A DNA stretch of 64,000 nucleotides from Patescibacteria group bacterium (GCA_041666325.1 JBAYHC010000004.1:128929-192928), one strand, 5' to 3'. Positions 26,433 to 61,989 are shown, counted from the stretch's first letter. A program made the numbers and translations. Notes: generated from the sequence alone by a model not told the origin.

Positions 26433-26493
26433 TTACTAGCTTACTAGCTTACTAGCTTACTAGCTTACTAGCTTACTAGCTTACTAGCTTATT
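26433..26493. repeat. Microsatellite (TTACTAGC)x7 with a partial eighth unit
   Basis: Seen directly in the sequence. The unit is related to the pervasive GCTTAC / CTAGTAAG intergenic motif family. Confidence 0.9.
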
Positions 26494-26587: not shown

Positions 26588-26986
26588 ATGCGCTACAAGG
26601 TGCCACAAAATATCGACATGCAAGACAGAATCATTGGCCCACTGACGATGATTCAGTTTATCTATGCAATTGTTGGGACAGGCGCTGCCTACTCACTCTA
26701 TATGACCCTGCCAAAGCCACTCAATCTAATCGCGGCTGTTCCCGTTCTAATTTTTACAATTTGTATTGTCTTTATCAAAATTAACGAGAGACCCTTCCTA
26801 AATTTCTTCTTAGCCATGATAGAGTTTCTCTCCGCCCCCAAAAAACGCGTCTGGCATCACGGCAGTGTCGACAACCTTAAGGTTATTATTTACAGCAACA
26901 AAGACAACAGCAAACAGAAAGCTGCCGTCAAACATGTTTCCGAGGATGAAATCAAAAAACTAGCAAAAAAATTAGACGAGAATTAA
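26588..26986 (+). CDS. PrgI / VirB3-like small T4SS membrane protein (132 aa, two TM helices)
   Basis: The N-terminus ...YKVPQNIDMQDRIIGPLTMIQFIY... is followed by two hydrophobic helices. It sits upstream of the VirB4 homologue, as PrgI and TcpD do in Gram-positive T4SS loci. Confidence 0.5.
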   Translation: MRYKVPQNIDMQDRIIGPLTMIQFIYAIVGTGAAYSLYMTLPKPLNLIAAVPVLIFTICIVFIKINERPFLNFFLAMIEFLSAPKKRVWHHGSVDNLKVIIYSNKDNSKQKAAVKHVSEDEIKKLAKKLDEN

Positions 26987-27060: not shown

Positions 27061-27116
27061 GCCTCTCGCCCGCCTGCATCGCCTGGAGCGAAGCGACTGC
27101 GGGCAGGCCTCTCACA
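27061..27116. repeat. Intergenic copy of the 36-bp core repeat (27071-27106), flanked by cctctc direct repeats
   Basis: The core is identical to the one at 3963-3998. The flanks are cctctc...cctctc. The spurious minus-strand ORF 27050..27373 reads through it. Confidence 0.8.
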
Positions 27117-32869: not shown

Positions 32870-32957
32870 ATGAGGCTAGTAAGCTGGTAGGCAAGTAGGC
32901 ATTTAGGTAATAGTGATTCGCTGTGCTGTTGCTTCAGCCTACCAACGTACCTGCCTA

Positions 32958-37700: not shown

Positions 37701-40700
37701 GAGGCTGATGCATATATCTCAGAGGAACCAGGGCGAAAGCTTGACCTAAATCACGGCGACTTATACAGACTCTTTGGTTATGCCGAAGCTAATGGGGAGG
37801 CAGTCTTTAGACGTATTGGACAAAAGTTACTGTTTTATATGATCGCGAACAAAGCTCTAGCAGCGAAAGGACAAAGCTCTTCGGTTAAGCTTAATCTTAG
37901 TGAAACCAACCCCAGGCTTATTCCTGGTAGCGACACAGCGATCTTTTACTTCTCGCGTTTTGACCGCGCCCTGCAACTAGCAAGAACGATCAAGGGCGAC
38001 TGGGAAAATGAACGAGAGCCTGGTTTCGATCGAATCATAGGCCTGATGAATGAACTTGACCGCGAGTTTCAGGTTGGTAGTCAGGCGCTCCTGACTCTGA
38101 ACCTTCTCGAAATAGCGAACACCGTTAGAGCCAACATATACCTCATAGATCAGCTTACAATTGCTCTTGAGGAGAAGCGCCTCTACGCGACCCACATGAT
38201 CGAGAAGATCAACAAGACCATAAGAGATGTAAATGAGCTTATCAAGGTGACATCGGAGTTCCTGTCCGGACAAGAGATACCTTCAGCCGAGCTCTTAACT
38301 GTCGACCAAATTCGAACAGACGCATTTGCAAAGCCGCTCAGGGGCAGACCAAGAGCACAGCGAAAGATAAATCCGCTTGTGATCCTGGACTTCCTGGCGG
38401 GCAGAATCACCCCGTTAGACTTCTTTGTTCTGCTTGGTGCGAACCAACTTGAAGCTCGCCTTGGCTTACCACAAAACACCCTTGTTTACTACATACAGAA
38501 TTCTGAAACAATGGGAATCGCTAATCTCGATACATTTTATGTTGCGCTTGGTCAGGCCAGGATAGAGGAAGAATACGAGCTGCCCAGATACTACTTCCAG
38601 GGCTATGTTGTACCGGGCGACCGCAAGGTACCGGACTTCAGGCGAGACTGGACAGCACTAAAGCGACTTCTCGTTAACCGGCAGGATTCGGCCAAATACA
38701 GGCAAGAGGTGGGATGGACCGGGATATATCCGGCACTATTCCCACTAGCCAAGACGGATTCGTACTCCTTTGACGAACGCTTAATAAGTGATTTTGACAA
38801 CAGGATGAAGGCGATACGTGAAAGCGAGGAGAAAAAGAGAGTTACAAACAAACCATATACCGACCTGATCAAGGATGCTGAAAAGCTATGGCAAGACGAC
38901 CGAAAGCACGAAAGGGAAGAGCGATATAGTGACGAGGGCGCAGAACGCGGTAGGTTCGGAGACATCGACCTGGGCGATCTGCTCAAAAACCTAACAGACC
39001 GAAACTATGCCTCTACTGAGCCTTCAGCCCAGTCAAATCTGATGTTCAGTCTCAGAATGCCTGGCAATTATACTGCACTAACGCAAGGTTCGACAATCGC
39101 CTGGGAGACTAGCGGAGCAAAGGCAAGAGCTGCAGCGATCGATAAACAATTCGGCCTTGCCGCAAACACAACTCACAACTTATTCACCGGCGACACAGTC
39201 TTGGCGCCAAGCGGGACAAAGATACTGTCACAATCAGAGAAGGACCTCGCTAATTATTTTGGCGGGATGAGCATCGGAGCCGTTGAAACCTACCTTCAGG
39301 TTCTAAACAACGAGCTTCCCTTCGCAGACCTGCAAAAACTGGGCCTTGTTTCCGACTACAACTTCCAAAATCGCTATGCACTACAAGAGGACGCGCCAAG
39401 CGACAACGAGTGTCCGGTTCTTTATGCTCAGGTGGAGCCAGGAAAGCCATCAGGCAAAGGAAAATTCTCTGTTAACTACACTACTATCGAGCCTGATACT
39501 TATAGTTATTACGACAAAAGAGGACGCCACACCTTCAAGAGCAGGAGGGAGGCAGAACGATACTCCAACGAGCATGTCGATGACAGAATTGATGTTGTTG
39601 GTCATATGGCCAAACAATTAAAGACTCTTTACGGACCAATACTTGGAAGAACAGCGGGCGGCCAACTGGGATCAGGTGACAAGTGGCGAGTACCAAGTAT
39701 AGATTTCAATAATGAGTCTGAAATCGCCGATAACCTAAGACTGTTGTTGATGAAAAATATCGGCGGTCTGTTTACGCTTGCTGATATCAGGGCAATCAAC
39801 GAAGCCACCGATGCCAATGATTTAGATGGCGATGGCGACCGATCTGAACAGTCAATAATTACAGTCAGTATCACTCTTGAGAACGGGGAAACCAAAGACT
39901 ACACTCTTAGCCCCAACACATTGGCCGGATCACCATACGACCCAGGTGTACTAGAGAAACTTTTCATGCGAAAGAAGACACAGAAACCGCTACAGGAATT
40001 CAAGAAGGCAGTCGGCCAGGTAGAAGCAGAAAAGGCAGTCAGCTGGAAACTGTTCTCAGAGTTAGTTGGAGTCAAGATCAGGCCAGAGTTCTTCGGGCCA
40101 GATGACCTATATAGCATCTTGCACGGCGACATGAGACCGATTTATAGAATTGGCTCCTATCTTATCGAGAAAGAAATGCACCTGCCTCAGCACTCTATAG
40201 CTCTGCTGATGTCAGCACTGAGTGGCAAGGCGAAGGAGTGCCAACTATCCCAAATTGGAGCCAATGTCTTGGGGGGTCTTGTTGGCCTCAAGTATTTGCC
40301 GTTGAATTTTAATGTTGCCAGCCCCAACGACATGGCTCAAGCCATCGGACAAGCCAAGATAGAGGAAACGCTTGGATTACCAAGAAAAACATTCAGTGGT
40401 GATTCTCTGTTGGATATCATCAACAGGATTGGTCCGATCACATTTGCCCTTGTCTTCAACATCCCAGTCGGGAAATCGGTCATCAGTAACCAGAACACAA
40501 TATTTAGCGATTCTGTTGGCAACAATGTTTCTCGCTTGGATGCTATCCTTGGGAATGAAGCCAATCAGGTTAGAAACACTAGCGGTAGATACAAACTCAA
40601 AAAGATTCATGATTTCCTTATCTCAAATCATGTTATCAACGACTTGGCCGGAGCGGGGGTCGAGAGCCTTGAGAATGAGCTAATTCAACAAACCATACAC

Positions 40701-43700
40701 TTTGTCCAAAACTATGCCACCTATGCCGGGCAGCAATTACCAGATAGAGCGTCATCAACAGAGATTGAATTTGCCGAAGAGGTTAAAAACTTTACCTCGC
40801 AAGTGAATAGTATTGACTCCCTGCTCAAAATCGACCGCAATTCTACGCTATATCTCCTAAGCACACTCTATGCCGGCGATAATCAGTCAGAACACGGTCC
40901 AAATAAGTTCAGGGAAAAGGTTGGCTGGGCTCACGTTCAAAAACTGATTACTCTTAGACTTGCGGAATTATTGAATATCGACACCGAAAGAGAACAGGCC
41001 GCCGCAGATATCATCACTGGCATTGCCAGCTACTTCCACTGCAGCGAGGATGACACCAACCAAGTTACCGGGCAGTGCGAAAACAGCAATTATGGCAATG
41101 TAGCTTGGCTCTTTAGTAAACTCTCGACTGTCTTTGTTCTTCGCTTAGACGAAAGAGCCGGTTTTCCGACCGGAACATTTGACCAGATGATCAAAGACCC
41201 GGTCAACGCCCCTATGACACTGCTTAAGATCGGGGCAAACAAACTTGATGCGAAGCTACAAAGGGACCCCAGCCGAATTTTTTCCTTCACAGGTTCATAT
41301 CGCTTCATTAACCAGGAATACCAGCAATCTCTTAGTGACGGTTCTCTTGGTTTTATTTCTGATTACCGTGACCAAAACATTGCGGATCAGCAATGTCACG
41401 CCCAGTACTATCCCAACGGCCTAGATATGCGGTTAGACAGTCAATACAAGGCAGTCTTGGCCGTTTACAACGAGCCAGCCCCAAGCAGAACCGAACACCC
41501 AGAAGAATATCAAGCTTGGTATGACCGACATGCTGATGCTTCTGACCAGCTCTACTCTGGTCGCAGTGGTACAATCGGACGAACGATATCTGATCTCAAT
41601 ACACAATACAATAATTGTGTAGAGAGCAAGCGCGAGAGAGAGACCGTTGCAAAATGCGTCGGAGAAACACCAGCACCAGGCGGAACATGCACCACGGGAG
41701 GAGGAAGTGGAAACAATATCTTCCGCGACCTCATCCATCATATCAAGCTCGGCATAGCTGAGGAGATCGTGTATGCAATCAGACACGTCGCAGATGTAAA
41801 TGGAGTTCCCGTGGGCGTTGAAATGCCCAAAGAAGACATGTATGAGTTGCTATTCAGAGGCGATATTCGCTTCCTCTACATCGCTGCCACCGCCTTCACT
41901 GTCAACTTCATCACAGCTATTGTCGAGGGTGATGAAAGTCGACAACCGTGGCCGCCGGCACTCCGCATTACTTATGGGGAGATCCGGCTAGTCTATATCG
42001 GCGACCCGAGATCAGACCAGGCCGCCAGAGATGCCGCTACAATTGCTTTTGCCAACACATACACCCCAGGTGACATCAATGTTACAAGTGGCGACATAAA
42101 CGCGAGTCTTCCGGGTAGTCCACATGCCCCTCCTGTACCCAATGGTGAAGTCTGTCCCCCTAACGCACCAACAGGATCTCAATGTATTCCCTCCGACTCT
42201 TATCGCAACGGAACAGCCACCGGCACTGGCCTGGATCCAAGATCAAACGCTACCCAAATGGGTAATGTCTATGGTGTAAACACAAATGACCCAACCCTGC
42301 ACGCAAGAGCAGAGGCCTACACAACATCAGTACTGGGAAATGTTGGAAGTGCCTGGAGCAACCTACAAACAGCATACGGCGAAGAACCTCAAAGAGGTGC
42401 TTACCGCAATGATGCGGAATACCAGAGCGCACATAGCACATGGGAGGAAAGAATCGGCGAGTACCCAAGTGCAGACAATCCCCAGGGCTCTGGTTTGCGC
42501 GGACAACTCGCTGCGGCAGGCGATAGAAGAGATGAACTCAACAGGCGAAGAGACGAGGCAGAGGGCAAATCTCGCGCCATTTATCGCAACAATTTGATAT
42601 ACAAAACCTTTGATGCCGCCCTGTGGAAAGTAGACAAAAACATTTTCCCTGGCTTTACCCGTGCACTGATGGCCGGTAGTCTAAGAGAGAAACAGCTAGC
42701 GCTACTCACATATCTTGAAAACGGCCTCAAAAACGGCAACCTATTCTTTGGTGTTCTTAGATTTGATGCCATCCCTGCAGAACTCGTCGGAGTCATTGAT
42801 GACTTTGTCCATATCTTCCTGTTAAAGGATAGGGACTGGAACAGCTTCCTTACAGGAAGTGGCGCTAAGGTTCTAGCAGGTTTTGTCTCCAACAATTCCA
42901 GGAAATGGTTTAACGGTCTCTATATTCCGCCCGATATGATCATTGGTCTAATGGTGGGAATCACTACTGGTGAATGGGGCTTTGATTTCTCATCTCGCGG
43001 CGACACTATCACCCCAACCGCCACAGTTAATGGCGTCAAATTGCCAACACTGGGCAGTGCTCTCATGAGTATCGTTGAAACGAGAATATTCTCCTGGGCC
43101 GACACAAAGCTGGGTCTCCCGCCAGGAACAGTATCAACCGCGTTCAAGATGGTGGTAAAAATATACAAGGCGACAATGCTGTACTTCGAGCTACAGCACG
43201 CAATCGGAATATACAGCCAAATAACGAACCTACAGGGGATATATGATGCCGCTGAAGCAGCAGGAGCGGGCGCTGACGTACTGGGTGATATCTCAGGCGA
43301 GATTAGCGCCTTAGAGGGCAAGATTGACCCCAGCACCCTCGATGCCCTAGATGCCAACCAGGCGGGCAATGGCGAGATGCTTGACGGCAAGATTCTCGAC
43401 ATCAGAAAATTAATTGCGGCAGCCATAGCTGAGTTGATTACCTTTGCGATCATGCAAGCAATTCAGAAACTATTTGGCGAAGAAATTGGACGGTTTGAGG
43501 AAAGTATGGGACTGGTGCCAGGATCAACGATGGTTTTGATTAATTTCGTAGTAGGGGAGCTGGTTGTGATGGCTGTAAACGCAGTTGCTGGATCTGCTTT
43601 GCTTCCAGCCGCTGGCCCGATCGGTTTTGGAATCGCTGTGATTTTATTCATTGCCATTAATCTCTGGGGCATACATAAAATTGAGATAAAATGTAATGCT

Positions 43701-44237
43701 GACGGTCAGTACGTTAACTGGAGCGAGGAAAAGGGGACCTATACAACCGGTCCAGATGGCCAACCCTTGACTAGTCAGACATTAGCAGACTATGATGTTA
43801 CCCCTATTGGTTGGTGGGAAAAACGGGTTACGAGCAGCTCTAGCTTCCAGACAGAGTTTAGTGAATTAATGAAACAAAAAACAATTCTCACTGCTAGGTA
43901 TAAGGCCAACAGGTTAATTAAAGATATGCTAGAGATGCAAAATAGCTCAAGATTCAGAGATGAAACAGGCAAGGGCATAGTTCCAACGCAAATAATGATC
44001 GGCAGGGCAGAAGACGCAAAGAACGTTGAGCAGAACGGCGATATGATCTCTAGAAAGATGTGTCAACAAAGACTGGGCAAAGACTCTGTTGCTGTTGAAA
44101 CCAGAAGCAGCGAGACAGGAGAGCTGCTCGGATATGTTTGCGGTGACAGGGATACTAAACCAGGGGGGACCCCTCCGACAAAGATAGGTATCTGGAAAAA
44201 CCTCCAAACAACAGCTTGGTCACATATAGGGTTCTAA
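34716..44237 (+). CDS. Giant secreted or surface protein (3173 aa). It has an N-terminal signal peptide and C-terminal hydrophobic anchor helices. It is translationally coupled to the M23 peptidase gene.
   Basis: A single uninterrupted 9.5-kb ORF was found. The signal peptide is MRSVFRKTLLWLITISITLEPVFVLLPQNVSAQDA. C-terminal TM segments include ...VVGELVVMAVNAVAGSALLPAAGPIGFGIAVILFIAINLWGI.... The ATG at 34716 abuts the TAG at 34713-34715. Confidence 0.6.
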   Translation: MRSVFRKTLLWLITISITLEPVFVLLPQNVSAQDAAPESLQDSNPYDESDIRSNADSDDLGDEENYRLEPGQLENIEDVKTKEALDPVMDAISRESDITVVGDSAEERSAARRLAAILEEYTPYRNLVTYDDFLAGQQEAKIVLSAGDLEVLRAMHYISKVAPDFSEDSVAMFNSLNPSTTEAGERLLSRDDIRSSDGVGIVDEATMQTIHNKWQSEITIDSDNAVERGDNEDFANAIRSYFVSLKQGGALETNQNKKIVNKELFHDFVQQARRDFAESWSIDNVTSGTLANLNKNDLMAISGYSESEIDRILQDKPSDSQPQGGDRWRYFAESILDIVKNSQIDIRVLKTLVYLVTPKSEGGAGHWRIRARKIVQTNSKLSHESDSVRDATCSGDGTQSAASCGESINNEGTPISGASADIQDSSGNVTGQAVITDEPEEILSAHGDGQAVDISEIDDIRCTVIKYRHIGHSFKEKRPATPVKLAWQTTEGYASSGGNNPIDIMGMIRSSATESLQNFANDLGADAITDFEGDLSQSGFSDIVGLFGKSMMASAVNSASLDFFGDNVEETLRNLGSVYFADYLGIPRNLFVGTEQEKLASLDYVSRVIGQAAIEKRLNIPFGSLSTEVKLSTADASTGDSSQPTIYSGLEAMMLNTGLRKLEWEMILDPGDLDNMFWSDPNKQIPIQTLHHRIGSRIIEKKFNLDKGMLDSVVAGKDLAYLKTRFGERARLLFIDPTYFDNILSLNAGTTKLLFDGQTSPSDYIATVGRRRYLNTVRGLRHLSSTSSAYAVPPTTPVTTTIYSPDNIALNDCLSNPQTCRTFTNPDGITVLQKTENIDTWNSAILGRKEAIENIGTFTVARLLAHPQDYTPEEANRINQVGLEHQQLDDGVSMTIDPKDKGVGALHQWIIANQQKYAFDHNDGFNGRTVTSWDKKNAEIPNSSTETCRNGIACVRVRVNSVFMGESSTPTETDTIGAPVNVNVHTPVYNVYPAGEADAYISEEPGRKLDLNHGDLYRLFGYAEANGEAVFRRIGQKLLFYMIANKALAAKGQSSSVKLNLSETNPRLIPGSDTAIFYFSRFDRALQLARTIKGDWENEREPGFDRIIGLMNELDREFQVGSQALLTLNLLEIANTVRANIYLIDQLTIALEEKRLYATHMIEKINKTIRDVNELIKVTSEFLSGQEIPSAELLTVDQIRTDAFAKPLRGRPRAQRKINPLVILDFLAGRITPLDFFVLLGANQLEARLGLPQNTLVYYIQNSETMGIANLDTFYVALGQARIEEEYELPRYYFQGYVVPGDRKVPDFRRDWTALKRLLVNRQDSAKYRQEVGWTGIYPALFPLAKTDSYSFDERLISDFDNRMKAIRESEEKKRVTNKPYTDLIKDAEKLWQDDRKHEREERYSDEGAERGRFGDIDLGDLLKNLTDRNYASTEPSAQSNLMFSLRMPGNYTALTQGSTIAWETSGAKARAAAIDKQFGLAANTTHNLFTGDTVLAPSGTKILSQSEKDLANYFGGMSIGAVETYLQVLNNELPFADLQKLGLVSDYNFQNRYALQEDAPSDNECPVLYAQVEPGKPSGKGKFSVNYTTIEPDTYSYYDKRGRHTFKSRREAERYSNEHVDDRIDVVGHMAKQLKTLYGPILGRTAGGQLGSGDKWRVPSIDFNNESEIADNLRLLLMKNIGGLFTLADIRAINEATDANDLDGDGDRSEQSIITVSITLENGETKDYTLSPNTLAGSPYDPGVLEKLFMRKKTQKPLQEFKKAVGQVEAEKAVSWKLFSELVGVKIRPEFFGPDDLYSILHGDMRPIYRIGSYLIEKEMHLPQHSIALLMSALSGKAKECQLSQIGANVLGGLVGLKYLPLNFNVASPNDMAQAIGQAKIEETLGLPRKTFSGDSLLDIINRIGPITFALVFNIPVGKSVISNQNTIFSDSVGNNVSRLDAILGNEANQVRNTSGRYKLKKIHDFLISNHVINDLAGAGVESLENELIQQTIHFVQNYATYAGQQLPDRASSTEIEFAEEVKNFTSQVNSIDSLLKIDRNSTLYLLSTLYAGDNQSEHGPNKFREKVGWAHVQKLITLRLAELLNIDTEREQAAADIITGIASYFHCSEDDTNQVTGQCENSNYGNVAWLFSKLSTVFVLRLDERAGFPTGTFDQMIKDPVNAPMTLLKIGANKLDAKLQRDPSRIFSFTGSYRFINQEYQQSLSDGSLGFISDYRDQNIADQQCHAQYYPNGLDMRLDSQYKAVLAVYNEPAPSRTEHPEEYQAWYDRHADASDQLYSGRSGTIGRTISDLNTQYNNCVESKRERETVAKCVGETPAPGGTCTTGGGSGNNIFRDLIHHIKLGIAEEIVYAIRHVADVNGVPVGVEMPKEDMYELLFRGDIRFLYIAATAFTVNFITAIVEGDESRQPWPPALRITYGEIRLVYIGDPRSDQAARDAATIAFANTYTPGDINVTSGDINASLPGSPHAPPVPNGEVCPPNAPTGSQCIPSDSYRNGTATGTGLDPRSNATQMGNVYGVNTNDPTLHARAEAYTTSVLGNVGSAWSNLQTAYGEEPQRGAYRNDAEYQSAHSTWEERIGEYPSADNPQGSGLRGQLAAAGDRRDELNRRRDEAEGKSRAIYRNNLIYKTFDAALWKVDKNIFPGFTRALMAGSLREKQLALLTYLENGLKNGNLFFGVLRFDAIPAELVGVIDDFVHIFLLKDRDWNSFLTGSGAKVLAGFVSNNSRKWFNGLYIPPDMIIGLMVGITTGEWGFDFSSRGDTITPTATVNGVKLPTLGSALMSIVETRIFSWADTKLGLPPGTVSTAFKMVVKIYKATMLYFELQHAIGIYSQITNLQGIYDAAEAAGAGADVLGDISGEISALEGKIDPSTLDALDANQAGNGEMLDGKILDIRKLIAAAIAELITFAIMQAIQKLFGEEIGRFEESMGLVPGSTMVLINFVVGELVVMAVNAVAGSALLPAAGPIGFGIAVILFIAINLWGIHKIEIKCNADGQYVNWSEEKGTYTTGPDGQPLTSQTLADYDVTPIGWWEKRVTSSSSFQTEFSELMKQKTILTARYKANRLIKDMLEMQNSSRFRDETGKGIVPTQIMIGRAEDAKNVEQNGDMISRKMCQQRLGKDSVAVETRSSETGELLGYVCGDRDTKPGGTPPTKIGIWKNLQTTAWSHIGF

Positions 44238-52509: not shown

Positions 52510-54159
52510 ATGGTAGACATCTCAAAAAAAATATCTGGCTTCAATCGTGAGTTAGAGGAGAGGCATACCTCTGAACTTGCCCAAAGATTGGGTCTTCCAT
52601 ACATCGATTTACACAACTATCCTCTCACCAAAGAGGTCTTGGAGACGATTCCAATAGAGTTGGTTTCCCGTTATCAGATCGTGCCATACTTAAAGATTGG
52701 TCGGTCAGTAAAACTGGGAACAGTTCATCCGAGCGATCCGGCCGTAAAAGAGTTCGTCGACCAGCTCTCCAAAACAAGCGGACTCCAGTTCAGTATCTGT
52801 GTGATTTCGGGTAGTAGTTTTGCCTATGGCGTGAACTCATACAAAGAGGCAAAACAAGAAGTTGAGGACAAGGTTCAGAAGGAAGTCAAGGAGAAGGAAG
52901 AGGTCTATGAGTCAGAGCTAGGGGATATCAACTCAATCAGCGAGGTTGTTAAAAAGGTTAGCACTACTCGCTTACTCGATGTAGTTATCTTCGGCGCCGT
53001 AAAACTCAAAGCCTCTGATGTCCACATGGAGCCGGAGGAGAAGGATGTCCTTATCCGCTATCGCGTTGATGGTGTCCTGCAGGATGTCTCTCATGTCTCA
53101 GCCTCTCATTATCATCAGCTGCTATCTCGGATAAAGTTTCTGTGCCAGATAAGAATGGACTCGACCAATCAGCCCCAAGACGGACGGTTCTCAATTAAGA
53201 CTCCCACTGGCGGTAATATTGATTTGCGCGTTTCGATTATGCCATCTACCTTCGGCGAGGCCGTAGTTATTCGAATTCTTGGCCAAGAGACTTCTATTTT
53301 GCGTCTAGATAAATTGGGTTTTAGATCCGAAGCACTCGTTGCTGTCAGGCAATCCATCTCGAAGCCAAATGGCATGATTCTAACCTCCGGTCCGACCGGT
53401 AGTGGCAAATCATCAACTTTGTATGCGGTTTTGATGGAGCTCAAGAAGCCTGACGTGAAGATCATTACACTGGAGGATCCGGTAGAATATCGCATTGAGG
53501 GGATAGAGCAGAGCCAGATTAAATCAGAGGAGGGATACACATTTGCACAGGCGCTCCGGGCCTCTCTGCGCCAAGATCCCGACATTTTAATGGTCGGTGA
53601 GATACGTGATGGGGAAACGGCCGAAATCGCTGTCCAGGCTGCTTTGACGGGCCACCTGCTTATATCAACAATTCATGCCAATTCCGCTCCGGCCGTCTTT
53701 GTCCGACTCTTGGAGATGGGGGTTAAGCCGTTCCTCCTTTCTGGCTCAATGAACTTGGTTATGGCTCAGCGGCTTATCCGCAAAATTTGTGCCAACTGCC
53801 GCGAACAATACACACCTCGCCCAGAGGTTTGGCAGGAGGTCAGGGACACTCTCATGCCCATCAAGGACAGGATCGAACCATCGCTTCAGCAGTTTCTGCT
53901 TTCACCGCAAGTCTCTCTTGTGAGAGGTAAGGGCTGCGACAAGTGCGGCAAGAGCGGCTATCTCGGAAGGCAGGTCGTTATCGAGGTTTTGGTGCCGGAC
54001 AGTACGATCGAGGGTTTGGTTGCAAAGGGTGCGTCTATCTCGGAGTTCGAAAGGGCAGCCAAGACCCAGGGAATGGTCTCCATGGAACAAGACGGCTTAA
54101 TCAAGGTTCTCAAGGGAGAGACAACAATCGAAGAGGTTTGGAGAGTAACGAAGGATTAG
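52510..54159 (+). CDS. pilB: Type IV pilus assembly / type II secretion ATPase (PilB/GspE family)
   Basis: The N-terminal T2SSE_N-like domain is present. The Walker A is LTSGPTGSGKSSTL. The Asp and His boxes are DPDILMVGEIRD and TGHLLISTIHAN. A tetracysteine motif (CANC...CDKCGKSGYLGR) is present. Confidence 0.85.
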   Translation: MVDISKKISGFNRELEERHTSELAQRLGLPYIDLHNYPLTKEVLETIPIELVSRYQIVPYLKIGRSVKLGTVHPSDPAVKEFVDQLSKTSGLQFSICVISGSSFAYGVNSYKEAKQEVEDKVQKEVKEKEEVYESELGDINSISEVVKKVSTTRLLDVVIFGAVKLKASDVHMEPEEKDVLIRYRVDGVLQDVSHVSASHYHQLLSRIKFLCQIRMDSTNQPQDGRFSIKTPTGGNIDLRVSIMPSTFGEAVVIRILGQETSILRLDKLGFRSEALVAVRQSISKPNGMILTSGPTGSGKSSTLYAVLMELKKPDVKIITLEDPVEYRIEGIEQSQIKSEEGYTFAQALRASLRQDPDILMVGEIRDGETAEIAVQAALTGHLLISTIHANSAPAVFVRLLEMGVKPFLLSGSMNLVMAQRLIRKICANCREQYTPRPEVWQEVRDTLMPIKDRIEPSLQQFLLSPQVSLVRGKGCDKCGKSGYLGRQVVIEVLVPDSTIEGLVAKGASISEFERAAKTQGMVSMEQDGLIKVLKGETTIEEVWRVTKD

Positions 54160-54249: not shown

Positions 54250-55734
54250 ATGCCTAAAAAATATGTTCTAGAGATTAGTATTTTTGTCAGTGGCGCGGTC
54301 GTAATGATTCTGGAGTTGTTGGGATCAAGGATGTTTGCGCCCTTTTTTGGAAACTCATTGATTGTCTGGACCAACCTGATTGGTATTGTAATGGCCAGCT
54401 TAAGCATTGGCTATTGGTTTGGTGGTCGCATTGCCGACAAAGAGCCAACCTACAAAAAATATTCGGTTATACTTTTTGTTGTGGGCTTGCTTATCTTTTT
54501 GGTTTATCTCTTGCAGCTTCCGGTTTTGGTTTTGCTGCAAAACAATATAGTTGATATTCGGTATGGATCCATTTTGGCTGGTGTGATATTGCTGGCTCCA
54601 GCCAGTGCTTTTCTGGGCATGGTTTCGCCCTATGCTGTGCGATTAAAAATGAAAGACATCAAGGCATCTGGTGCAACAGTCGGGCGGTTATACGCTATTT
54701 CTACTTTTGGCAGTATTGCCGGTACCTTTTTGGCAGGCTTCTGGCTTATAGCACGCCTTGGAACATCCCAGAGTATTGTTTTACTATCTTTGGTTGCGAT
54801 TGCTTTGTCTGTTGTTGTTTGGACAGATGTCAAGTTTCTTATTATAAGATTGGTGGCTATCACGATTATCGCAATAGGCGCTCTCTCTTTCAGAGTGCAG
54901 TTATCCGGTGTTGTTGCTGATATTGACACCCAATATAGTCGCGCCTTGATATACGACTCTGTTGAGGAGATTTCCAGCAGGAATGTTAGAACTATTGCCT
55001 TTGTGCCCGGAGAAGCCGAATCGGCTATGTATGAAGATAATCCAGATGAGTTAGTTTCTGATTACACAAAGTTTTTTCGCATTGCCGGTTTTCTTAAGCC
55101 GGATCAAAAGCGCACACTGCTAATTGGCGGCGGAACGTATATGTATCCACGAGATTACTTGAAGCAATTTCCTGAGTCTGAGATGGATGTAGTTGAGATT
55201 GATCCGGAGATGACCGACATTGCCAAAAAGTATTTTTCCTTTAAGGAAGACCCTCGTCTCAACATCTATCATGAAGATGGCAGGACTTTTATAAACCGGA
55301 GCAAGGCATCATACGATGCGATTTTCCTAGACGCTTTCAAATCCTACAATTCAGTGCCATTCTATCTAGCTACGCGAGAATCTCTCGAGAGGATTAGGGG
55401 ATTACTCAGTGAGAATGGTGTTGTGGTCACGAATATTGTTTCTGCACTTGAGGGAGAGAATGCAAGGTTTTTCGAAGCCGAATATGTCACATTGAAATCA
55501 GTCTTTCCATCAGTTTCCATATTCAGAGTATCTTCAGGTTCTAGCAATCAAGACATACAAAACATTATCTTGGTGGCCGCAAGGGCATCCGTCGATCTTG
55601 GTCAAGCCGTGAAATATTCCCCGACCTATGCTGACAAGATCGTAGACAAAGATGCCATTAAGAGTGGTGCGCTCGTTCTGACTGACAACTTTGCTCCTGT
55701 CGATCAATATCTTTTTTCGCTCAATCTTAAATAA
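54250..55734 (+). CDS. Membrane-anchored spermidine-synthase-like aminopropyltransferase. It has an N-terminal multi-TM domain and a C-terminal SpeE-like domain.
   Basis: The first roughly 200 aa form about 7 TM helices. The C-terminal ...LLIGGGTYMYPRDYLKQFPESEMDVVEIDPEMTDIAKKYF...YDAIFLDAF... is a SpeE fold. Confidence 0.6.
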   Translation: MPKKYVLEISIFVSGAVVMILELLGSRMFAPFFGNSLIVWTNLIGIVMASLSIGYWFGGRIADKEPTYKKYSVILFVVGLLIFLVYLLQLPVLVLLQNNIVDIRYGSILAGVILLAPASAFLGMVSPYAVRLKMKDIKASGATVGRLYAISTFGSIAGTFLAGFWLIARLGTSQSIVLLSLVAIALSVVVWTDVKFLIIRLVAITIIAIGALSFRVQLSGVVADIDTQYSRALIYDSVEEISSRNVRTIAFVPGEAESAMYEDNPDELVSDYTKFFRIAGFLKPDQKRTLLIGGGTYMYPRDYLKQFPESEMDVVEIDPEMTDIAKKYFSFKEDPRLNIYHEDGRTFINRSKASYDAIFLDAFKSYNSVPFYLATRESLERIRGLLSENGVVVTNIVSALEGENARFFEAEYVTLKSVFPSVSIFRVSSGSSNQDIQNIILVAARASVDLGQAVKYSPTYADKIVDKDAIKSGALVLTDNFAPVDQYLFSLNLK

Positions 55735-55824
55735 TCATCAAAAAATGGGTTTTAAACCCATTTTTTGATGATCTAGGCCGCACCAAGCACCGTTTGGATG
55801 GGCGACTTGTCAGTGAAGACAGTA

Positions 55825-56172
55825 CTATAAATCTTTAAGAGCGCCACCCTCTGTAGCGGAGCCGAAGCCCTTTGAGACAGCTGAGACAATTGTGTAGGCC
55901 AGGATAATAATGATGATACCGATAACAGCATTGATGATACCTTGCTGTGCTTTTTTAGTTTGTTCGGCGTTTCCACCTGCTGTCAAATAGAGAATGCCGG
56001 AATAAACTAGATAGAAGAAGGCTAGAACGCCGGCAATAACTCCAATCCAGCCTGCGATTTGAACAACTAGCTCATCAAGAGTGGTTGAAGAGCCTGTCAG
56101 GTTGAGTTTTAGACCAGCGGTGCCTGTCTCTGCTGCTGAGGCATCAGCAGCAACGCGATTGATTAAGTTCAT
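55825..56172 (-). CDS. Pilin-like small membrane protein, paralogue 1 (putative T4SS pilin / VirB2-like)
   Basis: Two hydrophobic helices flank the conserved ...YSGILYLTAGGNAEQTKKAQQGIINAVIGIIIIILAY... motif, which is shared by five proteins in this cluster. Confidence 0.45.
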   Translation of the reverse strand: MNLINRVAADASAAETGTAGLKLNLTGSSTTLDELVVQIAGWIGVIAGVLAFFYLVYSGILYLTAGGNAEQTKKAQQGIINAVIGIIIIILAYTIVSAVSKGFGSATEGGALKDL

Positions 56173-56352
56173 TTATCCTCCTTAGAATTTTACTTCACAA
56201 CCGTGTTTGAAGTGTTGAGAAGATGATGTTAATGATATCGGCGTGCCTAATGATCGACCATTTGGGGATAATTGTCCCCGCCACAGGACCGATAGATATT
56301 TACTAATACATATTATATAGATGTTCCCAACCGCGTCAAGGGTGTCTGGTTT

Positions 56353-56652
56353 TTACTTAACAACATCCTTGACGGCAGTGACAATGACATAGGCAAGAAT
56401 AATGACAATCATACCTATAATAGCACTCACTATGCCCTGGGTTGCCTTCTTGGTTTGCTCTGAGTTGCCGCCCGATGTCAGATAGAGAAAGCCCGAGTAA
56501 AGCAAGAATATAAAAGCAGCGACTCCGGCAACGACTCCGACAACAGAAATAATTTTTGCCACCAGTGAATCGAGGCTGTCTATTCCCACCGGCGCCACAG
56601 CAAGGTCCGAGCTAGCGGCAGCCAGGGCTCTTGAGGTTATCAATTGTTTCAC
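56353..56652 (-). CDS. Pilin-like small membrane protein, paralogue 2
   Basis: The motif ...YSGFLYLTSGGNSEQTKKATQGIVSAIIGMIVIILAY... was seen. Confidence 0.45.
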   Translation of the reverse strand: MKQLITSRALAAASSDLAVAPVGIDSLDSLVAKIISVVGVVAGVAAFIFLLYSGFLYLTSGGNSEQTKKATQGIVSAIIGMIVIILAYVIVTAVKDVVK

Positions 56653-56756
56653 AACCGTCCTCCTTTACAAGAAGTCATCGATCTATTACAAGATATGATA
56701 ATACCCGACTCGGCGATGCCGAAGGTGAGACGGGGATCCTTTGGGGTCAATACCTT

Positions 56757-57071
56757 TTATTTCAGCGCATTCACAAATATACCGACCAGTGCTTTGGCAA
56801 CTGCGACAACAACAACGCCGATTATGGCCCAATAGAGGGTCTTTTTGCCGTTTTCGGCTTTGCTGTCATCGCCATATGCGGTCACGTACATGAATGAACC
56901 ATATAGTATATAACCAAAGGCCACTACGCCGGCGAGATCAAGAGCAGTGTCGACCACGCGATCAACAAAAATCTTGATCGTATTAAGGTTATTTGCTGAT
57001 CCTGTCGTATCTTGATTAAGCAGTTCGGATAGCTTCATCGCCGCTTTAGTTTTTTGAACCAGTGTTATCAT
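56757..57071 (-). CDS. Pilin-like small membrane protein, paralogue 3 (more divergent)
   Basis: The sequence ...GYILYGSFMYVTAYGDDSKAENGKKTLYWAIIGVVVVAVAKA... has the same architecture. Confidence 0.4.
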   Translation of the reverse strand: MITLVQKTKAAMKLSELLNQDTTGSANNLNTIKIFVDRVVDTALDLAGVVAFGYILYGSFMYVTAYGDDSKAENGKKTLYWAIIGVVVVAVAKALVGIFVNALK

Positions 57072-58306
57072 TAGCCCCTCATTATTCCGAGTATGAAATT
57101 AACTAGTTGTATGATGGCGTAAGAGAAGGTGGCCAGGACAAAGCCGGTAATGGAGTACATTATACTCTTTTTGCCCTTTTCTCGTTGGGTTGAGTTGCCG
57201 GCAGATGACAACATCTGGAAGCCGCCGACAATGACACCAATAAATGATAGTATGCCGATCAGTTCAAGGGCAAATCGAATGATTTTTCCAAGAACAGAGG
57301 CATCAGCACCACGAACATCTGGGCTTGATAGATCCACGACCGTGCTGCCGTCTCCTGCGTTGAATTCAGGCGGTCGCAGAATCGGTAATGGGGTAGATCG
57401 GTCTGCAGTATCTCCAGATGTGTCGCGTGGCATTTGTCCATTGGTAACATCAATAGCCAGTTCGCTTATTGCCATCAGATATGTACCTTCTTTGATTTCC
57501 AGGCTTGCTCTGTGGTTGCCGGATATGGTGCCGCTGGTTCCGGCAGTTGTTTGCCAAAAACAGGCGTCGATGGGAGGAGTTCTGTCGTTTCTGATATCTC
57601 CGGCGCACTTCTCAACGTCTGGTTCTCCTCCGGCTTGAGATGAGACCTTAAGAGAATATCTGTATGTATGTGTTGAGGAATTGTCCCAATATGCTAGATT
57701 GAAAGTTACTTTTTCTCCGGCGATGACACCCTGTGTCTTGTCGGCTGATAAATATGCGAGACAGCCCGAACCATCAGAGCAAGCAGTGGTGCCACCGCTC
57801 TCGATGATAAGCCGGAAGAGGTCGCTTTCAAATACCGGTGTCTCATAATTTCCGGTCGCTGCTTTGTATTGATAAATAATTACCTTGTAACCGTACCTCT
57901 CTCCGTCCCGTGAGCCGGGGATTGACCAGGACCTAGAGAAACCGGAACTAATTTGCGGACCCTCGATGAGTTGGGGGCTGCCCAGGCGCTGAACATCGCC
58001 GCTAACACTTGTTGGCTGCGGTGTAACATAGACAGAGGCACTCCAGATGGGGATCTCGGGGGTGGCTGGATTGCTGTCGTGGTCAAAGACGAAGCTTGCT
58101 CCCTGAAGAGACAATTCAACCCTAAGTGTTGTGCTGCCGCCGGGTCTTATTTGTCCCGGATCCGCTGTAATAGTAGGAGTAAGAGTGCTGGCAAAAGCGT
58201 GGGCGGGCAAGATGACTTGGATCAGCGTGCTTAGTCCGCCCAATATCATAATATGCGCCACTAGTGCCAGTCCGTATCTTTTTTTCCAAATTTTGAATCT
58301 TGTCAT
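57071..58306 (-). CDS. Secreted protein of 411 aa. It has an N-terminal signal peptide, a large extracellular domain and a C-terminal pilin-like module. It is a candidate pilus tip or adhesin subunit.
   Basis: The signal is ...ILGGLSTLIQVILPAHAFAST. The C-terminus ...ILSFIGVIVGGFQMLSSAGNSTQREKGKKSIMYSITGFVLATFSYAI... matches the paralogue motif. The start overlaps the upstream gene's stop codon at 57071. Confidence 0.45.
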   Translation of the reverse strand: MTRFKIWKKRYGLALVAHIMILGGLSTLIQVILPAHAFASTLTPTITADPGQIRPGGSTTLRVELSLQGASFVFDHDSNPATPEIPIWSASVYVTPQPTSVSGDVQRLGSPQLIEGPQISSGFSRSWSIPGSRDGERYGYKVIIYQYKAATGNYETPVFESDLFRLIIESGGTTACSDGSGCLAYLSADKTQGVIAGEKVTFNLAYWDNSSTHTYRYSLKVSSQAGGEPDVEKCAGDIRNDRTPPIDACFWQTTAGTSGTISGNHRASLEIKEGTYLMAISELAIDVTNGQMPRDTSGDTADRSTPLPILRPPEFNAGDGSTVVDLSSPDVRGADASVLGKIIRFALELIGILSFIGVIVGGFQMLSSAGNSTQREKGKKSIMYSITGFVLATFSYAIIQLVNFILGIMRG

Positions 58307-58325
58307 TAGTCGATCCGTATCACAA

Positions 58326-58679
58326 TTATAGAATCTTAACTTCGTCTAAGCCGATGAAGTTAAGGATAAACTTAATCAGTATAAGTACGGCGAGCCCCAA
58401 GAGAGCCCCTGTAGCAATTTCCTTGGCGTCGCCAATCGCTGATTGATTTCCTGCTGATGTCAGGTATTTGTAGCCGGCATAGACAATCATAAGTGTTGCC
58501 AGAGAAGTGCCGAGACCGATTGAAAAGTTATAAATAGCCTCAACATATTCCTTGTAGGTGTAGCTTGTTCTGCCACTGCTCGGTGGCAAGCCAACTTCGA
58601 CCGCGCTGCGGCCCAGCTGGGGCGCAGCAGCAAGTGTTTTTGTTGCCGGCCAATATGTAATTGTCTCGCTTTCTACCAT
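58326..58679 (-). CDS. Pilin-like small membrane protein, paralogue 4
   Basis: The motif ...AGYKYLTSAGNQSAIGDAKEIATGALLGLAVLILIKF... was seen. Confidence 0.4.
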   Translation of the reverse strand: MVESETITYWPATKTLAAAPQLGRSAVEVGLPPSSGRTSYTYKEYVEAIYNFSIGLGTSLATLMIVYAGYKYLTSAGNQSAIGDAKEIATGALLGLAVLILIKFILNFIGLDEVKIL

Positions 58680-60091
58680 GTTTCTTTTCGCAGGAGGTTA
58701 TTGATATCGTTGGCTGCCAGATCTATGGCCGCCTTGGAGTCTTGGCGACCACTGTTCACTGAGTCGATAGAGTTTTTTATAATAGCATCAAATTCTGCCG
58801 GAAAACGTCCTTTGACCAGTGAATTTGCTGTCACCAAGGAAATTCGCTCTGGGTTGCCTGGAGTGCGCGCCTTCAATGAAACATCAGTATCAGTTGATTT
58901 TTGGCTGCTGTACAGGCGGTTTACGGAGTTGAGAGAACTGCTGCTTGCTGTGGCAACCAAATAATTTAGCCTCCAGGTCATGACGGTAGCTTTTGAGAAC
59001 CTATTAACTCCAAAGGCCATAAACTTTGCGTAGTCCGTGAGTTTGTCAGTTTGTTCGCTAAGCTGGGGAGCAGGCGCTTTTTTGTAACTAATTTTCGAGG
59101 AGGGATACTTTTGCAAAATGTAGTTCTGGAAATCGCTGTAACCGAAGATCATGGCCACTTTTCCATTTACGAAGGCATCGACTTCGTCTCCAAGAGAGTC
59201 ATTCCATGTGTAATTAGAGGAGCCCGGGTTAGAGAATGAGGTGTAAAACTCCAACGCTCTCTTGCCGGGGTAATCATCTTTGCCGGACGAGGTTTGAGTT
59301 GGTAAATTAAAGGTCGAAAGCTTGAGGTCGTCGGAGAGTATTTTGGTCTCATTCTGCATCATGAGTAGATAGAGGATGTCCTGGGAGCTTCTGAGACTGC
59401 TTGTTCCTATAGCTAGTCCAGATATATCAATATTGTTGCCATTTTTTTCTGTTAGTAGATTTGCTAGCTCGCTTAGGCCAGTCCATGATGTGGGGAAATT
59501 TCGTGATAATTCTTGTGCTCTTTGTCTTGTTTTTTGATCAATCTTGGAGTCTTGGGCAATTTTGGCCAGATTTGAGTCAAGCATTCCCTGGTTGTAATAG
59601 ATCATGAGCGGTTCCGCAGAGGGAGCCAAGGCGTAAATTCTGTCGTTAAACATGACTGATTGCTTGACTGACTTTGCAAATGTGCTATTCATGGTGAAGC
59701 CTTGCTTGCCCACGGCCTCGCCAAGTTTATCTTCACCTGCGCTGGCAAGCTTATCCTTGTGTCGGTAAACCCAATCACTTGGCATTGCCCATAAATCGGG
59801 CTTTGTTGTTGAGAGGATTGAGTTCAAAACTCTACCCTCGTATCCATCATCAAGAATTTGCTTTTCGTATTTGAGCGTATATCCCTTGTAGGTTGATGCA
59901 AATGTTTTGGCGATTGGCTTCCAGGCGTCTTCGTCCTCAAAGCTCCAGACCACAATTGTGGACGCGTCCGGGTCGGCTGTTGTTGCGGCTTTTTTGCTCC
60001 AAGGGAGAGTACATCCTGAGAGGGCGATAGAGAAAATAACTGCAAAAGTAGAGAATTTTGCAATTCGGCCAATTTTCTTAATTGAGCTCAT
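58673..60091 (-). CDS. Extracellular solute-binding lipoprotein (family-1 SBP-like). The likely start is the ATG at 60091. The track's longer start is at 60148.
   Basis: The lipobox-like sequence is ...FSIALSGCTLPW.... The overall length and composition fit a periplasmic-type binding protein. No adjacent permease or ATPase genes were seen. Confidence 0.45.
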   Translation of the reverse strand: MSSIKKIGRIAKFSTFAVIFSIALSGCTLPWSKKAATTADPDASTIVVWSFEDEDAWKPIAKTFASTYKGYTLKYEKQILDDGYEGRVLNSILSTTKPDLWAMPSDWVYRHKDKLASAGEDKLGEAVGKQGFTMNSTFAKSVKQSVMFNDRIYALAPSAEPLMIYYNQGMLDSNLAKIAQDSKIDQKTRQRAQELSRNFPTSWTGLSELANLLTEKNGNNIDISGLAIGTSSLRSSQDILYLLMMQNETKILSDDLKLSTFNLPTQTSSGKDDYPGKRALEFYTSFSNPGSSNYTWNDSLGDEVDAFVNGKVAMIFGYSDFQNYILQKYPSSKISYKKAPAPQLSEQTDKLTDYAKFMAFGVNRFSKATVMTWRLNYLVATASSSSLNSVNRLYSSQKSTDTDVSLKARTPGNPERISLVTANSLVKGRFPAEFDAIIKNSIDSVNSGRQDSKAAIDLAANDINNLLRKETW

Positions 60092-60153
60092 GGGTTCCCT
60101 CCGTGTGACAAGGCTAATTGGATAGTAGGCAAGTAAGCAGGTAGGCAAGTAGG

Positions 60154-60513
60154 TTAGTAGTGTTGAGATTTTTTCCAGTTATTTAGTAATCCACCGACTG
60201 ATTCACACTCACGGAATATTTTATCAAATTCCTCCGTGCTAATATATTCTAAGTCTTTGGAAAGAATTAGTTGGTATTTTAGCTCTTCCAGTGATCCTTC
60301 GGCGATATTGTAGAAACGGATACTGTCTTTCAGTCCTTTTCTTTTAAAACCTTCTGCGATATTTGATGGTATTGAAGATGAAGATCGGCGCATTTGGCTT
60401 GCCAGGCCATACTCTTCATGCTTTGGAAATTTTGAAACGAGCCTGTATGTGAGAAGTGTTAACTGATGCGCTTTTTGCCAAACTAGTAGATCTTGAAACG
60501 ATGTTATTGCCAT
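60154..60513 (-). CDS. Four-helix-bundle protein (TIGR02436-like), intact copy
   Basis: The product ...LLVWQKAHQLTLLTYRLVSKFPKHEEYGLASQMRRSSSSIPSNIAEGFKRKGLKDSIRFYNIAEGSLEELKYQLILSKDL... belongs to a family I recognise as the 23S rRNA-intervening-sequence protein family. Confidence 0.65.
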   Translation of the reverse strand: MAITSFQDLLVWQKAHQLTLLTYRLVSKFPKHEEYGLASQMRRSSSSIPSNIAEGFKRKGLKDSIRFYNIAEGSLEELKYQLILSKDLEYISTEEFDKIFRECESVGGLLNNWKKSQHY

Positions 60514-60576
60514 ATTGACCTACTTGCCTACTAGCTTACATGCTTACCGCTCTACCGCCTTACTGCTTTACCGCTT

Positions 60577-61458: not shown

Positions 61459-61557
61459 ATTTTTCCTTAATTTAAAAGTTTGTGGGCTGGTAGGCGATTA
61501 GGTACAAAAACATGCTGGTATTAGCTTGTTTGCATATTTACTTACTAGCCTACAAAC

Positions 61558-61989
61558 TTACCTGCTTATCTGTCTCTTTGTTCTTGAACTTTCGTAATCG
61601 CCCTCATTGATAGCGATTATCTTGGTTTTGACTTTGGCGTCTTTGGGAATCTCGACTTTCAAGAGTCCGTCTTTAAGTGTTGCCTTTGCGCTTTCTGAGT
61701 TAACGGCCATTGGCAGGACATAGGAGCGAGAGAAGGGTCCCCAGTAGCATTCCTGGGTGAAAAAGTGGTCTTCGTTGGGAGTGGTATCGTTTAGTTTGCG
61801 TTCACCACGAATTGTAACCACCTCGTCGGTGATGGAAACATCAAGATCGCTGGATTTGACACCAGCAACCGGAGCAACAATATAAATAGTGTGCTCGTCT
61901 TGATATACGTCAATAGCCAGCTCCCCGTCTACATGCTCGGTTAGCCAGTCGTCGTGCGGATTCTCTCCCTGCACATTCCCTCCTGTCAA
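61558..61989 (-). CDS. Hsp20 / alpha-crystallin small heat-shock protein
   Basis: The alpha-crystallin-domain pattern is ...AIDVYQDEHTIYIVAPVAGVKSSDLDVSITDEVVTIRGERK...FSRSYVLP...LKDGLLKVEIPK. Confidence 0.85.
   Translation of the reverse strand: MTGGNVQGENPHDDWLTEHVDGELAIDVYQDEHTIYIVAPVAGVKSSDLDVSITDEVVTIRGERKLNDTTPNEDHFFTQECYWGPFSRSYVLPMAVNSESAKATLKDGLLKVEIPKDAKVKTKIIAINEGDYESSRTKRQISR

Follow-up and report, generated by a model that had tools for sequence, protein, structure and literature searches.

Tandem arrays of type IV secretion system (T4SS) pilin genes have already been reported from Patescibacteria. In the consulted parts of a survey of 3,035 genomes searched with the Pfam families PF18895 (T4SS_pilin) and PF04956 (TrbC/VirB2), 441 arrays of 2-11 pilin genes are described, which have a mean identity of 25% (maximum 54%) and are frequent in Saccharimonadia; Patescibacteria T4SS genes are placed near dnaA (Quiñonero-Coronel et al., 2025; PMC12102498). 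The array of Ca. Southlakia epibionticum ML1 (SEML1_0014-0019) encodes six PF18895 proteins of 132, 185, 103, 126, 127 and 138 amino acids (aa), all scored as essential in the supplementary tables consulted (Wang et al., 2023; PMC10633639). Here we analyse a five-gene pilin array in a window of 64,000 nucleotides (nt), the window being the whole stretch of DNA that was analysed (GCA_041666325.1, JBAYHC010000004.1:128929-192928), from a Patescibacteria metagenome-assembled genome (MAG). The source is related to Saccharibacteria, the best named relative of its PilB (67% identity) belonging to an uncultured Candidatus Saccharibacteria MAG. An initial annotation of the window had recognized a cluster of pilin-like proteins here; the identification was right but the array is not new, because such arrays are already published. 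With five tandem PF18895 genes, 17-55% pairwise identity and VirB4 in the genome, it falls within the array definition in the consulted parts of the survey (PMC12102498).

The window array resembles that of Southlakia in being chromosomal and near dnaA, in consisting of tandem PF18895 genes of low identity of which the second is the longest, and in being accompanied by a monoderm-type T4SS with VirB4, VirB6-like and PrgI proteins. The flank is also held in common. The first gene of the window operon encodes a solute-binding protein (SBP)-like lipoprotein, upstream of which lie an Avd/23S-rRNA intervening sequence (IVS)-like gene, a nucleotidyl-transferase gene, Hsp20, a DZR_2/PRTase (ComF-like) gene and tRNA-Ser; since Hsp20, DZR_2/PRTase and tRNA-Ser likewise flank SEML1_0014-0019, the array occupies a position equivalent to that in Southlakia. 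The two differ in that the Southlakia array adjoins the T4SS genes, whereas here it lies 21-26 kb off, across the origin; in gene number (six there; five here, headed by the SBP-like lipoprotein gene); and in the extension on the position-2 pilin, which is ~110 aa in the 185-aa Southlakia protein compared with a head of ~300 aa in the window. In the consulted parts of the published array accounts we found no description of four pilin classes, a head-bearing position-2 pilin, a mini-leader or an SBP-like partner.

Pilin classes and N-terminal motif

The five minus-strand open reading frames (ORFs) were named p1-p5 in transcription order (Table 1). All five were recovered as annotated, as paralogues of one architecture, and all pass the PF18895 gathering cut-off of 26.6 bits (29.4-48.1 bits, E 1e-12 to 9e-7), so that the Pfam check that had been proposed for them returned the T4SS_pilin family in every case. 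The same match is precomputed for the identical public proteins, and the public entry identical to the 411-aa protein is annotated 'pilin'. Alignment and hydropathy define a C-terminal module of ~75-95 aa common to p1-p5, in which a short polar loop separates two hydrophobic helices. The long consensus motif that had been ascribed to the whole set fits p4 in full and p5 with one mismatch, and only a degenerate form of it is kept in p1, p2 and p3. Identity between p5 and p4 is 52-55%, compared with only 17-28% between p5 and each of p1, p2 and p3. A model of p5 by AlphaFold2 (AF2), from a 55-sequence alignment (pLDDT 80), has helices at residues 3-15, 32-64 and 69-108, with a variable stretch of low confidence between the short N-terminal helix and the hairpin. 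The genes are tightly spaced at the start of the operon (SBP-like gene/p1, -7 nt; p1/p2, +19 nt; p2/p3, -1 nt), with gaps of 104 nt before p4 and 180 nt before p5. A hidden Markov model (HMM) of the five proteins, run against the 515 stop-to-stop ORFs that reach 50 aa in the six frames, T4SS block included, found no sixth copy.

For comparison, syntenic loci were gathered through look-ups of identical proteins, a genome scan anchored on PilB and a metagenome scan anchored on class A; ~30 related loci were compared, the identity matrix covers seven genomes, and the 29 further loci cited below were not de-duplicated. Over the seven genomes the best cross-genome match of each pilin was nearly always the pilin at the same position. 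For p1 (class A) it was the position-1 pilin in every other genome, with 36-77% identity; p2 (class B) mostly matched position-2 pilins; position-matched identity was 31-60% for p3 (class C); and p4 and p5 form a single class D. Between classes, identity within one genome was at most about 30%. Class-specific HMMs recovered the order A, long pilin, C, D(/D) in ~25 further metagenome loci. By these comparisons, the array is a set of four old position-specific orthologous classes in the order A-B-C-D/D, in which p4 and p5 alone look like a recent duplicate. The paralogues have no DNA repeats of more than 16 nt in common, hence there are no substrates for gene conversion, and this, together with the per-position orthology, points to old specialized subunits and not to recent or switchable variants; the suggestion that the array is a divergent, antigenic one of the kind found in surface structures fits poorly with both observations. 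Three of the loci (L001-L003) have 100% DNA identity to the window and possibly come from the same population. More distant arrays are Southlakia-like, with seven or eight pilins of 95-197 aa and Hsp20 directly downstream; in one of these (L066) virB4 lies 5.7 kb upstream. The pilin domain is elaborated in yet another manner in a metagenome protein from outside the window (P0002, 314 aa), which also matches PF18895 and in which a Cys-rich domain at the N-terminus precedes two pilin hairpins in tandem.

The proposal that these are VirB2/TrbC-type T4SS pilins and not type IV pilins was borne out by the PF18895 matches of all five, sub-threshold PF04956 matches of two, and the lack of a prepilin leader: the type IV prepilin motif (class III leader, G|F-T-L-I-E) is absent from the five N-termini and from 82 homologues of p5, all of which are PF18895 proteins. 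A profile of class-C orthologues retrieved at least 13 relatives with both PF18895 and PF04956 among the 120 matches listed, and both families are also matched by SEML1_0018 and SEML1_0019 of Southlakia. Judged by these matches, class C is the class nearest to TrbC/VirB2. The VirB6-like, PrgI/VirB3-like and VirB4 proteins of the window, and the flank in common with the essential Southlakia array, point the same way as the family matches. A tblastn search with p3 against 72,556 plasmids gave no tie to known VirB2/TrbC pilins.

The small pilins p3, p4 and p5 begin with a motif of ~10 residues, M-x-L-I-E-K-A-Y-A, which among small pilins is typically M-N-(x)-L-I-E-K-A-Y-A and in a loose form matches 62 of the 82 class-D homologues. 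Class C has it too, as do a number of class A proteins. Its final Ala is invariant in the 55-sequence alignment, as conserved as the domain core, and the 20-30 residues that come after the motif are hypervariable and S/T/N/G-rich across homologues; class A proteins with a true signal peptide have an Ala at the same place, before a conserved V-x-V-G. Hydropathy shows no hydrophobic signal sequence in the small pilins, nor is there space for one in their stop-to-stop ORFs. The motif, which has small residues at -3 and -1, is a candidate processing site, and may be a processing or recognition site of a type not yet described; a leader with no hydrophobic core would be unusual. Known propilin leaders have 36-51 residues, and VirB2 is cut at Ala|Gln.

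The orientation of the hairpin is suggested by p2 and all its long relatives, the leaders of which are Sec-like and end in small-x-small residues (A-x-A, V-F-A, T-Q-A); this would put the N-terminus of the hairpin outside and the inter-helix loop in the cytoplasm. A topology in which both ends are outside also accords with the acidic N-tails and with the K-K pair found in the class C and class D loops. VirB2 and TraA are oriented in this way, with both termini outside and a cytoplasmic loop. Likeness to the TrbC/VirB2/TraA pilins of F, RP4 and Ti (PF04956) extends to the small two-helix protein with a short basic loop and inferred outside ends; to the conserved Ala that ends an N-terminal leader-like segment, often with Gln after it; and to the presence of VirB3, VirB4 and VirB6 homologues in the genome. 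The window system differs from these pilins in its monoderm host, in having several specialized paralogues whereas known conjugative pili have one pilin, and in the fusion of one paralogue to an immunoglobulin (Ig)-like head.

The head-bearing pilin p2

Four parts can be predicted in p2: a signal peptide, an extracellular head, a linker and the pilin hairpin (Table 1). The initial annotation had given this protein a secreted head, which is reasonable in view of a signal-peptide-like N-terminal segment ending AHA|FAS. The AF2 model of p2 was built from a 4-sequence alignment and has an overall pLDDT of 59; block means in the head are mostly 54-86, falling to 38 at residues 71-80. Cys176 and Cys182 of the head occupy invariant columns in the alignment of head relatives. 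In Foldseek searches of the PDB the head matched only tandem Ig/fibronectin type III (FnIII) folds of a generic kind (PECAM-1, RbmA, macroglobulin domains; E 2e-7 to 1e-5, template-modelling scores 0.2-0.3), and no specific adhesin family is named for it. Structure prediction, which had been put forward as a check, bore out the helical hairpin in both p5 and p2 and gave only generic fold matches for the head. The two sandwich domains of the head are predicted with modest confidence, and p2 may plausibly be the tip adhesin first suggested.

The head is narrowly distributed. An exhaustive phmmer search with residues 40-335 against 1.84 billion representative proteins found only three relatives, of 376-389 aa, all of which share the head-plus-pilin architecture; besides these there was one further, weak repeat match. 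The latter is an eight-fold repeat in a 3282-aa protein (P0088) that aligns weakly with residues 100-165 of the head query, i.e. 139-204 of the 411-aa protein. The head has no similarity to the neighbouring 3173-aa ORF. Between the window and L004, identity is 77% for p1 and 60% for p3; within p2, the hairpin reaches 53% and the head 35%. Heads from different genomes are weakly related at best, and those of L008 and L009 are unrelated.

The position-2 protein has 389-1044 aa in L004, L005, L007, L008, L009 and L010, and of the 29 further loci, 18 have a position-2 protein of 400 aa or more, seven one of 189-262 aa and four one of at most 117 aa. The long forms invariably have the pilin domain at the very C-terminal end, and their N-terminus is hydrophobic. 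Position-2 pilins usually bear a predicted Sec-exported head of 100 to ~950 aa. In some loci (L005, L010, and three-gene arrays with a pilin of ~750 aa) it is the class-C pilin that bears a head, or a second one.

A pilus model and its alternatives

We read the locus as a VirB2-like pilin operon whose products would build a short pilus from more than one type of pilin, class D forming the shaft and the head-bearing pilin acting as adhesin, and we consider this reading reasonably probable. Once in the membrane, the pilins would have their basic loop on the cytoplasmic side and both ends outside, an orientation that the Sec-exported head at the N-terminus of the class-B hairpin would fix, and the VirB4/VirB6/VirB3 machine would extract them from the membrane. 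Class D, which is duplicated, stands last in the operon and has a promoter-like site at p5, would polymerize to give a short tube, of which it forms the shaft; the low-copy 'minor' pilins that start assembly would be those of classes A, B and C, which would lie at the distal end because they are incorporated first. The two Ig/FnIII-like domains of p2, on a flexible linker of 45 residues, could then contact the envelope of a host cell, and the structure would serve in attachment to, or exchange with, a bacterial host.

Expression signals around p5 fit p5, and perhaps p4, as an abundant subunit: a promoter match in the gap before p5, a strong Shine-Dalgarno sequence (AAGGAGG) 6 nt upstream of its ATG, and a 19-nt inverted repeat after it that is probably a bidirectional terminator (Table 1). 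Sets of minor pilins and pseudopilins (FimU-PilVWXE, GspHIJK) offer an analogy and no more: they too are low-identity paralogues in conserved order, one of them much larger and with a globular domain, and their major subunit has a separate promoter where p5 has a promoter-like site. They differ in having an unrelated fold and leader and an assembly ATPase of another family. VirB5-type adhesins are distal on T4SS pili, the role proposed here for p2, and differ from p2, in which the proposed adhesin and a pilin are one protein; no homologue of VirB5 was detected. The 'Pam' pilus of the Candidate Phyla Radiation (CPR) was considered as a counterpart and set aside, the parts of its description consulted giving Ig-fold donor-strand pilins beside ATP synthase genes (bioRxiv 10.64898/2026.03.03.709456).

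Several points weigh against a VirB2-like pilus. All PF04956 scores fall below the cut-off of 27.9 bits (p3, 21.7 bits, E 2.4e-4; p5, 13.3 bits; none for the others). The family profile found no solved T4SS pilin among PDB sequences, Foldseek of the p5 model against the PDB returned generic hairpins only (E of at least 2), and hhalign of classes C and D against six alphaproteobacterial plasmid VirB2/TrbC proteins gave a probability of 1-4%, with the matched segment co-linear; fold searches cannot discriminate here because a two-helix hairpin is too simple. The leader-like motif of ~10 residues with no hydrophobic core departs from TrbC/VirB2/TraA pilins. In this lineage virB4 is not adjacent to the array, which has an SBP-like gene in its operon and pilB close by. 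The model of the head has a pLDDT of only 59 from its four sequences, and the roles of 'major', 'minor' and 'tip' subunit are drawn from gene order, promoter-like sites and analogy. Lastly, a pilus had not yet been seen for Patescibacteria T4SSs, according to the consulted parts of a 2025 review (PMC12857230).

The products might instead be membrane-resident channel subunits or anchors of the T4SS, with p2 as a hairpin-anchored surface adhesin and the SBP-like lipoprotein as its partner at the membrane surface. We regard this as unlikely. In its favour, monoderm conjugation systems have small proteins with two transmembrane segments (TcpD/TcpE, ConC); the fold evidence would be the same for a pilin hairpin as for any two-helix membrane hairpin; and the operon linkage is to the lipoprotein and not to virB4. 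From the literature, as far as consulted, a pilus has not been seen for such systems, monoderm T4SSs are normally without pili, and an unrelated CPR pilus system tethers via a membrane-anchored, RbmA-like tandem-FnIII protein, RbmA being among the fold matches of the head. Set against this are the family link to TrbC/VirB2 via PF18895 and PF04956, the number of paralogues (four to eight), which exceeds what a channel subunit would be expected to need, and the duplication of the presumed major class with a promoter-like site of its own; a tube of ~9 nm, of unassigned composition in the parts of the account consulted, is also present in a related organism (PMC11880426).

Slightly less probable is the view that these are interchangeable major pilins, expressed alternately or together, that vary the surface or widen the host range. 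Such a role has been proposed for the VirB2 paralogues of Bartonella and Anaplasma, and in the consulted parts of the genome survey it is suggested for the Patescibacteria arrays (PMC12102498). The low identity within the array (17-55%) resembles that of the published arrays (mean 25%, maximum 54%), the stretch after the conserved leader is hypervariable across homologues, position-2 heads differ greatly in size and sequence between genomes, and p4 and p5 are a recent duplicate pair, all of which would suit variation. However, every compared genome has an orthologue at the same position, identity within classes exceeds that between them, the order is kept in ~25 further loci, and there are no shared DNA repeats or cassettes to drive gene conversion; the strain's locus is known in a single sequence version (L001-L003); and the six Southlakia pilins are individually essential in the tables consulted, so not redundant. 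The Bartonella and Anaplasma expansions, as cited in the survey, are tandem too, whereas the window paralogues appear to be ancient orthologous classes and not lineage-specific variants.

Assembly of the array products by the neighbouring PilB, as subunits related to type IV pili, can be rejected as highly improbable, because no member has a prepilin motif (class III leader or G|F-x-x-x-E) and the architecture is wrong, with two helices in place of one N-terminal helix and a globular domain: pilB is 1.7 kb away, and in 18 related metagenome loci it is the next gene downstream and converges on the array, but Pfam puts all members in T4SS_pilin, pilB is on the opposite strand within a conserved origin-proximal synteny block with yidC, rnpA and dnaA, and Southlakia-type arrays adjoin T4SS genes (virB4 at 5.7 kb in L066) and Hsp20, not pilB.

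A fuller version of the VirB2-like pilus reading is offered tentatively, as a possibility we would not ourselves back at even odds: a VirB2-type multi-pilin pilus of a monoderm, in which A, B and C prime assembly and cap a D shaft, the coreless leader is ~10 residues long and ends in Ala, and the fast-changing head of class B sets which host can be attached to. Conjugative pili are ~9 nm wide. Cryo-electron tomography (cryo-ET) of the saccharibacterium Mycosynbacter has revealed a tube or 'lance' that measures ~9 nm across and 60-70 nm in length and is tipped by a barb; in the parts of the account consulted the composition of the tube is unassigned (PMC11880426). The head could be this barb, and a link between the pilins and the tube is speculation on our part.

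Few functions have been shown to be essential to Patescibacteria living as epibionts, and the T4SS with its pilin array is among them. If the set of four fixed classes holds true, and one of them bears an exported Ig-like head that differs rapidly from lineage to lineage, the head-bearing pilin is an obvious candidate for host specificity and provides a handle for antibodies, pull-downs and cryo-ET labelling, and it could aid the prediction of hosts for uncultured CPR bacteria from their genomes; we know of no earlier conjugative-type pilus with minor pilins. On the plainest reading, the locus adds a further case to a type of array already catalogued from hundreds of genomes.

Genomic surroundings and repeats

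The array had been placed 20 kb from the T4SS block and 1.7 kb downstream of pilB. Both distances held approximately, at 21 kb from the M23 peptidase gene, the last recognizable gene of the block (25.8 kb from virB4), and 1.67 kb from the 3' end of pilB. The origin region with recF, dnaN and dnaA, followed by yidC, intervenes on the T4SS side; pilB is convergent with the array, so that 'downstream' needs qualifying, and a 494-aa gene stands in between. The latter is not at this position in L005, L007 or L008. The T4SS block of the window is directly followed by a 3173-aa ORF, and L008 has a 2816-aa ORF beyond recF, on the side away from the pilin array. No relaxase was seen in the window.

For the SBP-like gene, the mechanical start is a TTG at 60148, inside an octamer repeat, and the product in the JGI entry has 472 aa. 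Its 3' end overlaps p1 by 7 nt. The protein is 47% identical over 467 aa to its orthologue in L007, for which PF01547 (SBP_bac_1) is precomputed, and has weak PDB matches to sugar-binding proteins. The SBP-like gene always stands first in the operon, and 22 related metagenome loci have a homologue immediately before the array. Beside the pilins, its product may act as a chaperone, as a partner that spans the wall or as a receptor for nutrients.

Table 1. Positions of the genes, protein segments and repeats discussed, numbered from the first nucleotide of the window.
Feature	Position	Strand	Basis or remark
p1, class A pilin, 117 aa	58326-58679	-	PF18895 31.2 bits
p2, class B pilin, 411 aa	57071-58306	-	PF18895 29.4 bits at residues 342-400
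p2 residues 1-39, predicted Sec-type signal peptide	58190-58306	-	Basic n-region, hydrophobic core, AHA|FAS; sequence and hydropathy
p2 residues 41-288, predicted extracellular head	57443-58186	-	AF2: tandem Ig/FnIII-like beta-sandwiches, 41-168 and 183-288
p2 residues 292-337, P/D/S/T-rich linker, predicted disordered	57296-57433	-	pLDDT <50 over 292-341
p2 residues 338-409, pilin helical hairpin	57080-57295	-	AF2 helices 338-366 and 372-409; PF18895 match
p3, class C pilin, 104 aa	56757-57071	-	PF18895 45.5 bits; start codon overlaps p2 stop by 1 nt
p4, class D pilin, 99 aa	56353-56652	-	PF18895 39.5 bits
p5, class D pilin, 115 aa, candidate major subunit	55825-56172	-	PF18895 48.1 bits
N-terminal motif of p3, p4 and p5	57042-57071, 56623-56652, 56143-56172	-	M-x-L-I-E-K-A-Y-A
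Sigma-70-like promoter match	56312-56339	-	TTGACG, 16 nt, TATAAT; 11/12 consensus only; in gap before p5
Perfect 19-nt inverted repeat, flanking A/T runs	55734-55772		Between convergent p5 and 494-aa gene
SBP_bac_1-like lipoprotein, 472 aa, first operon gene	58673-60091	-	Lipobox LSGC; probable ATG 60091
23S-rRNA-IVS/bAvd-like four-helix protein gene	60154-60513	-	Between nucleotidyl-transferase gene and SBP-pilin operon
VirB6/TrbL-like polytopic protein, 958 aa	21818-24694	+	PF04610 E 1.7e-4, 21.8 bits, below cut-off
PrgI (VirB3-like)	26588-26986	+	PF12666 45.8 bits
VirB4-type ATPase	28202-30043	+	PF19044 TraG P-loop 101 bits; also AAA_10
Cell-wall hydrolase, glucosaminidase and CHAP, VirB1-like role	30207-31475	+	Pfam domains
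M23 peptidase	ends 34715		Last recognizable T4SS-block gene
3173-aa ORF directly after T4SS block	34716-44237	+	No Pfam match at E <=0.1
pilB	52510-54159		Convergent with array
494-aa polytopic membrane protein, C-terminal spermidine-synthase-like domain	54250-55734	+	Between pilB and array
Octamer tandem arrays, 3-6 units	26388-26411, 32879-32910, 60125-60156	+
Octamer tandem arrays, 3-6 units	26437-26484, 60516-60547, 61538-61561	-

Short tandem arrays of an octamer, GTARGYNN (e.g. GTAGGCAA or GTAAGCTA), occur at six intergenic sites. Two in the T4SS block precede prgI and the M23 gene, and three lie around or just upstream of the SBP-pilin operon. None was found in shuffled sequence or in the 11 related loci scanned, which include the syntenic L005 and L007-L010. 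The arrays may represent a regulatory or repeat element, particular to this strain, that the T4SS and pilin operons have in common. Two of them form a 35-nt inverted repeat (60125-60159 and 60513-60547) that flanks the Avd-like gene, which is itself absent from the syntenic L005, L007 and L008. A diversity-generating retroelement was considered at this gene and rejected, there being no reverse transcriptase among the scanned ORFs and no template/variable repeat pair.

A second, GC-rich repeat of 46-56 nt, AGATACCTGCCCGCAGTCGCTTCGCTCCAGGCGATGCAGGCGGACG, is present at more than 90% identity and in both orientations at 3950-4005, 7261-7352 (two tandem copies) and 27064-27113. Copies lie within two long ORFs, namely an MnmA-like gene, where the repeat falls between the Pfam M and C domains, and a class-V aminotransferase gene, where it falls just past the Pfam match. 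The repeat brings to mind palindromic elements whose insertion sites lie in coding sequence.

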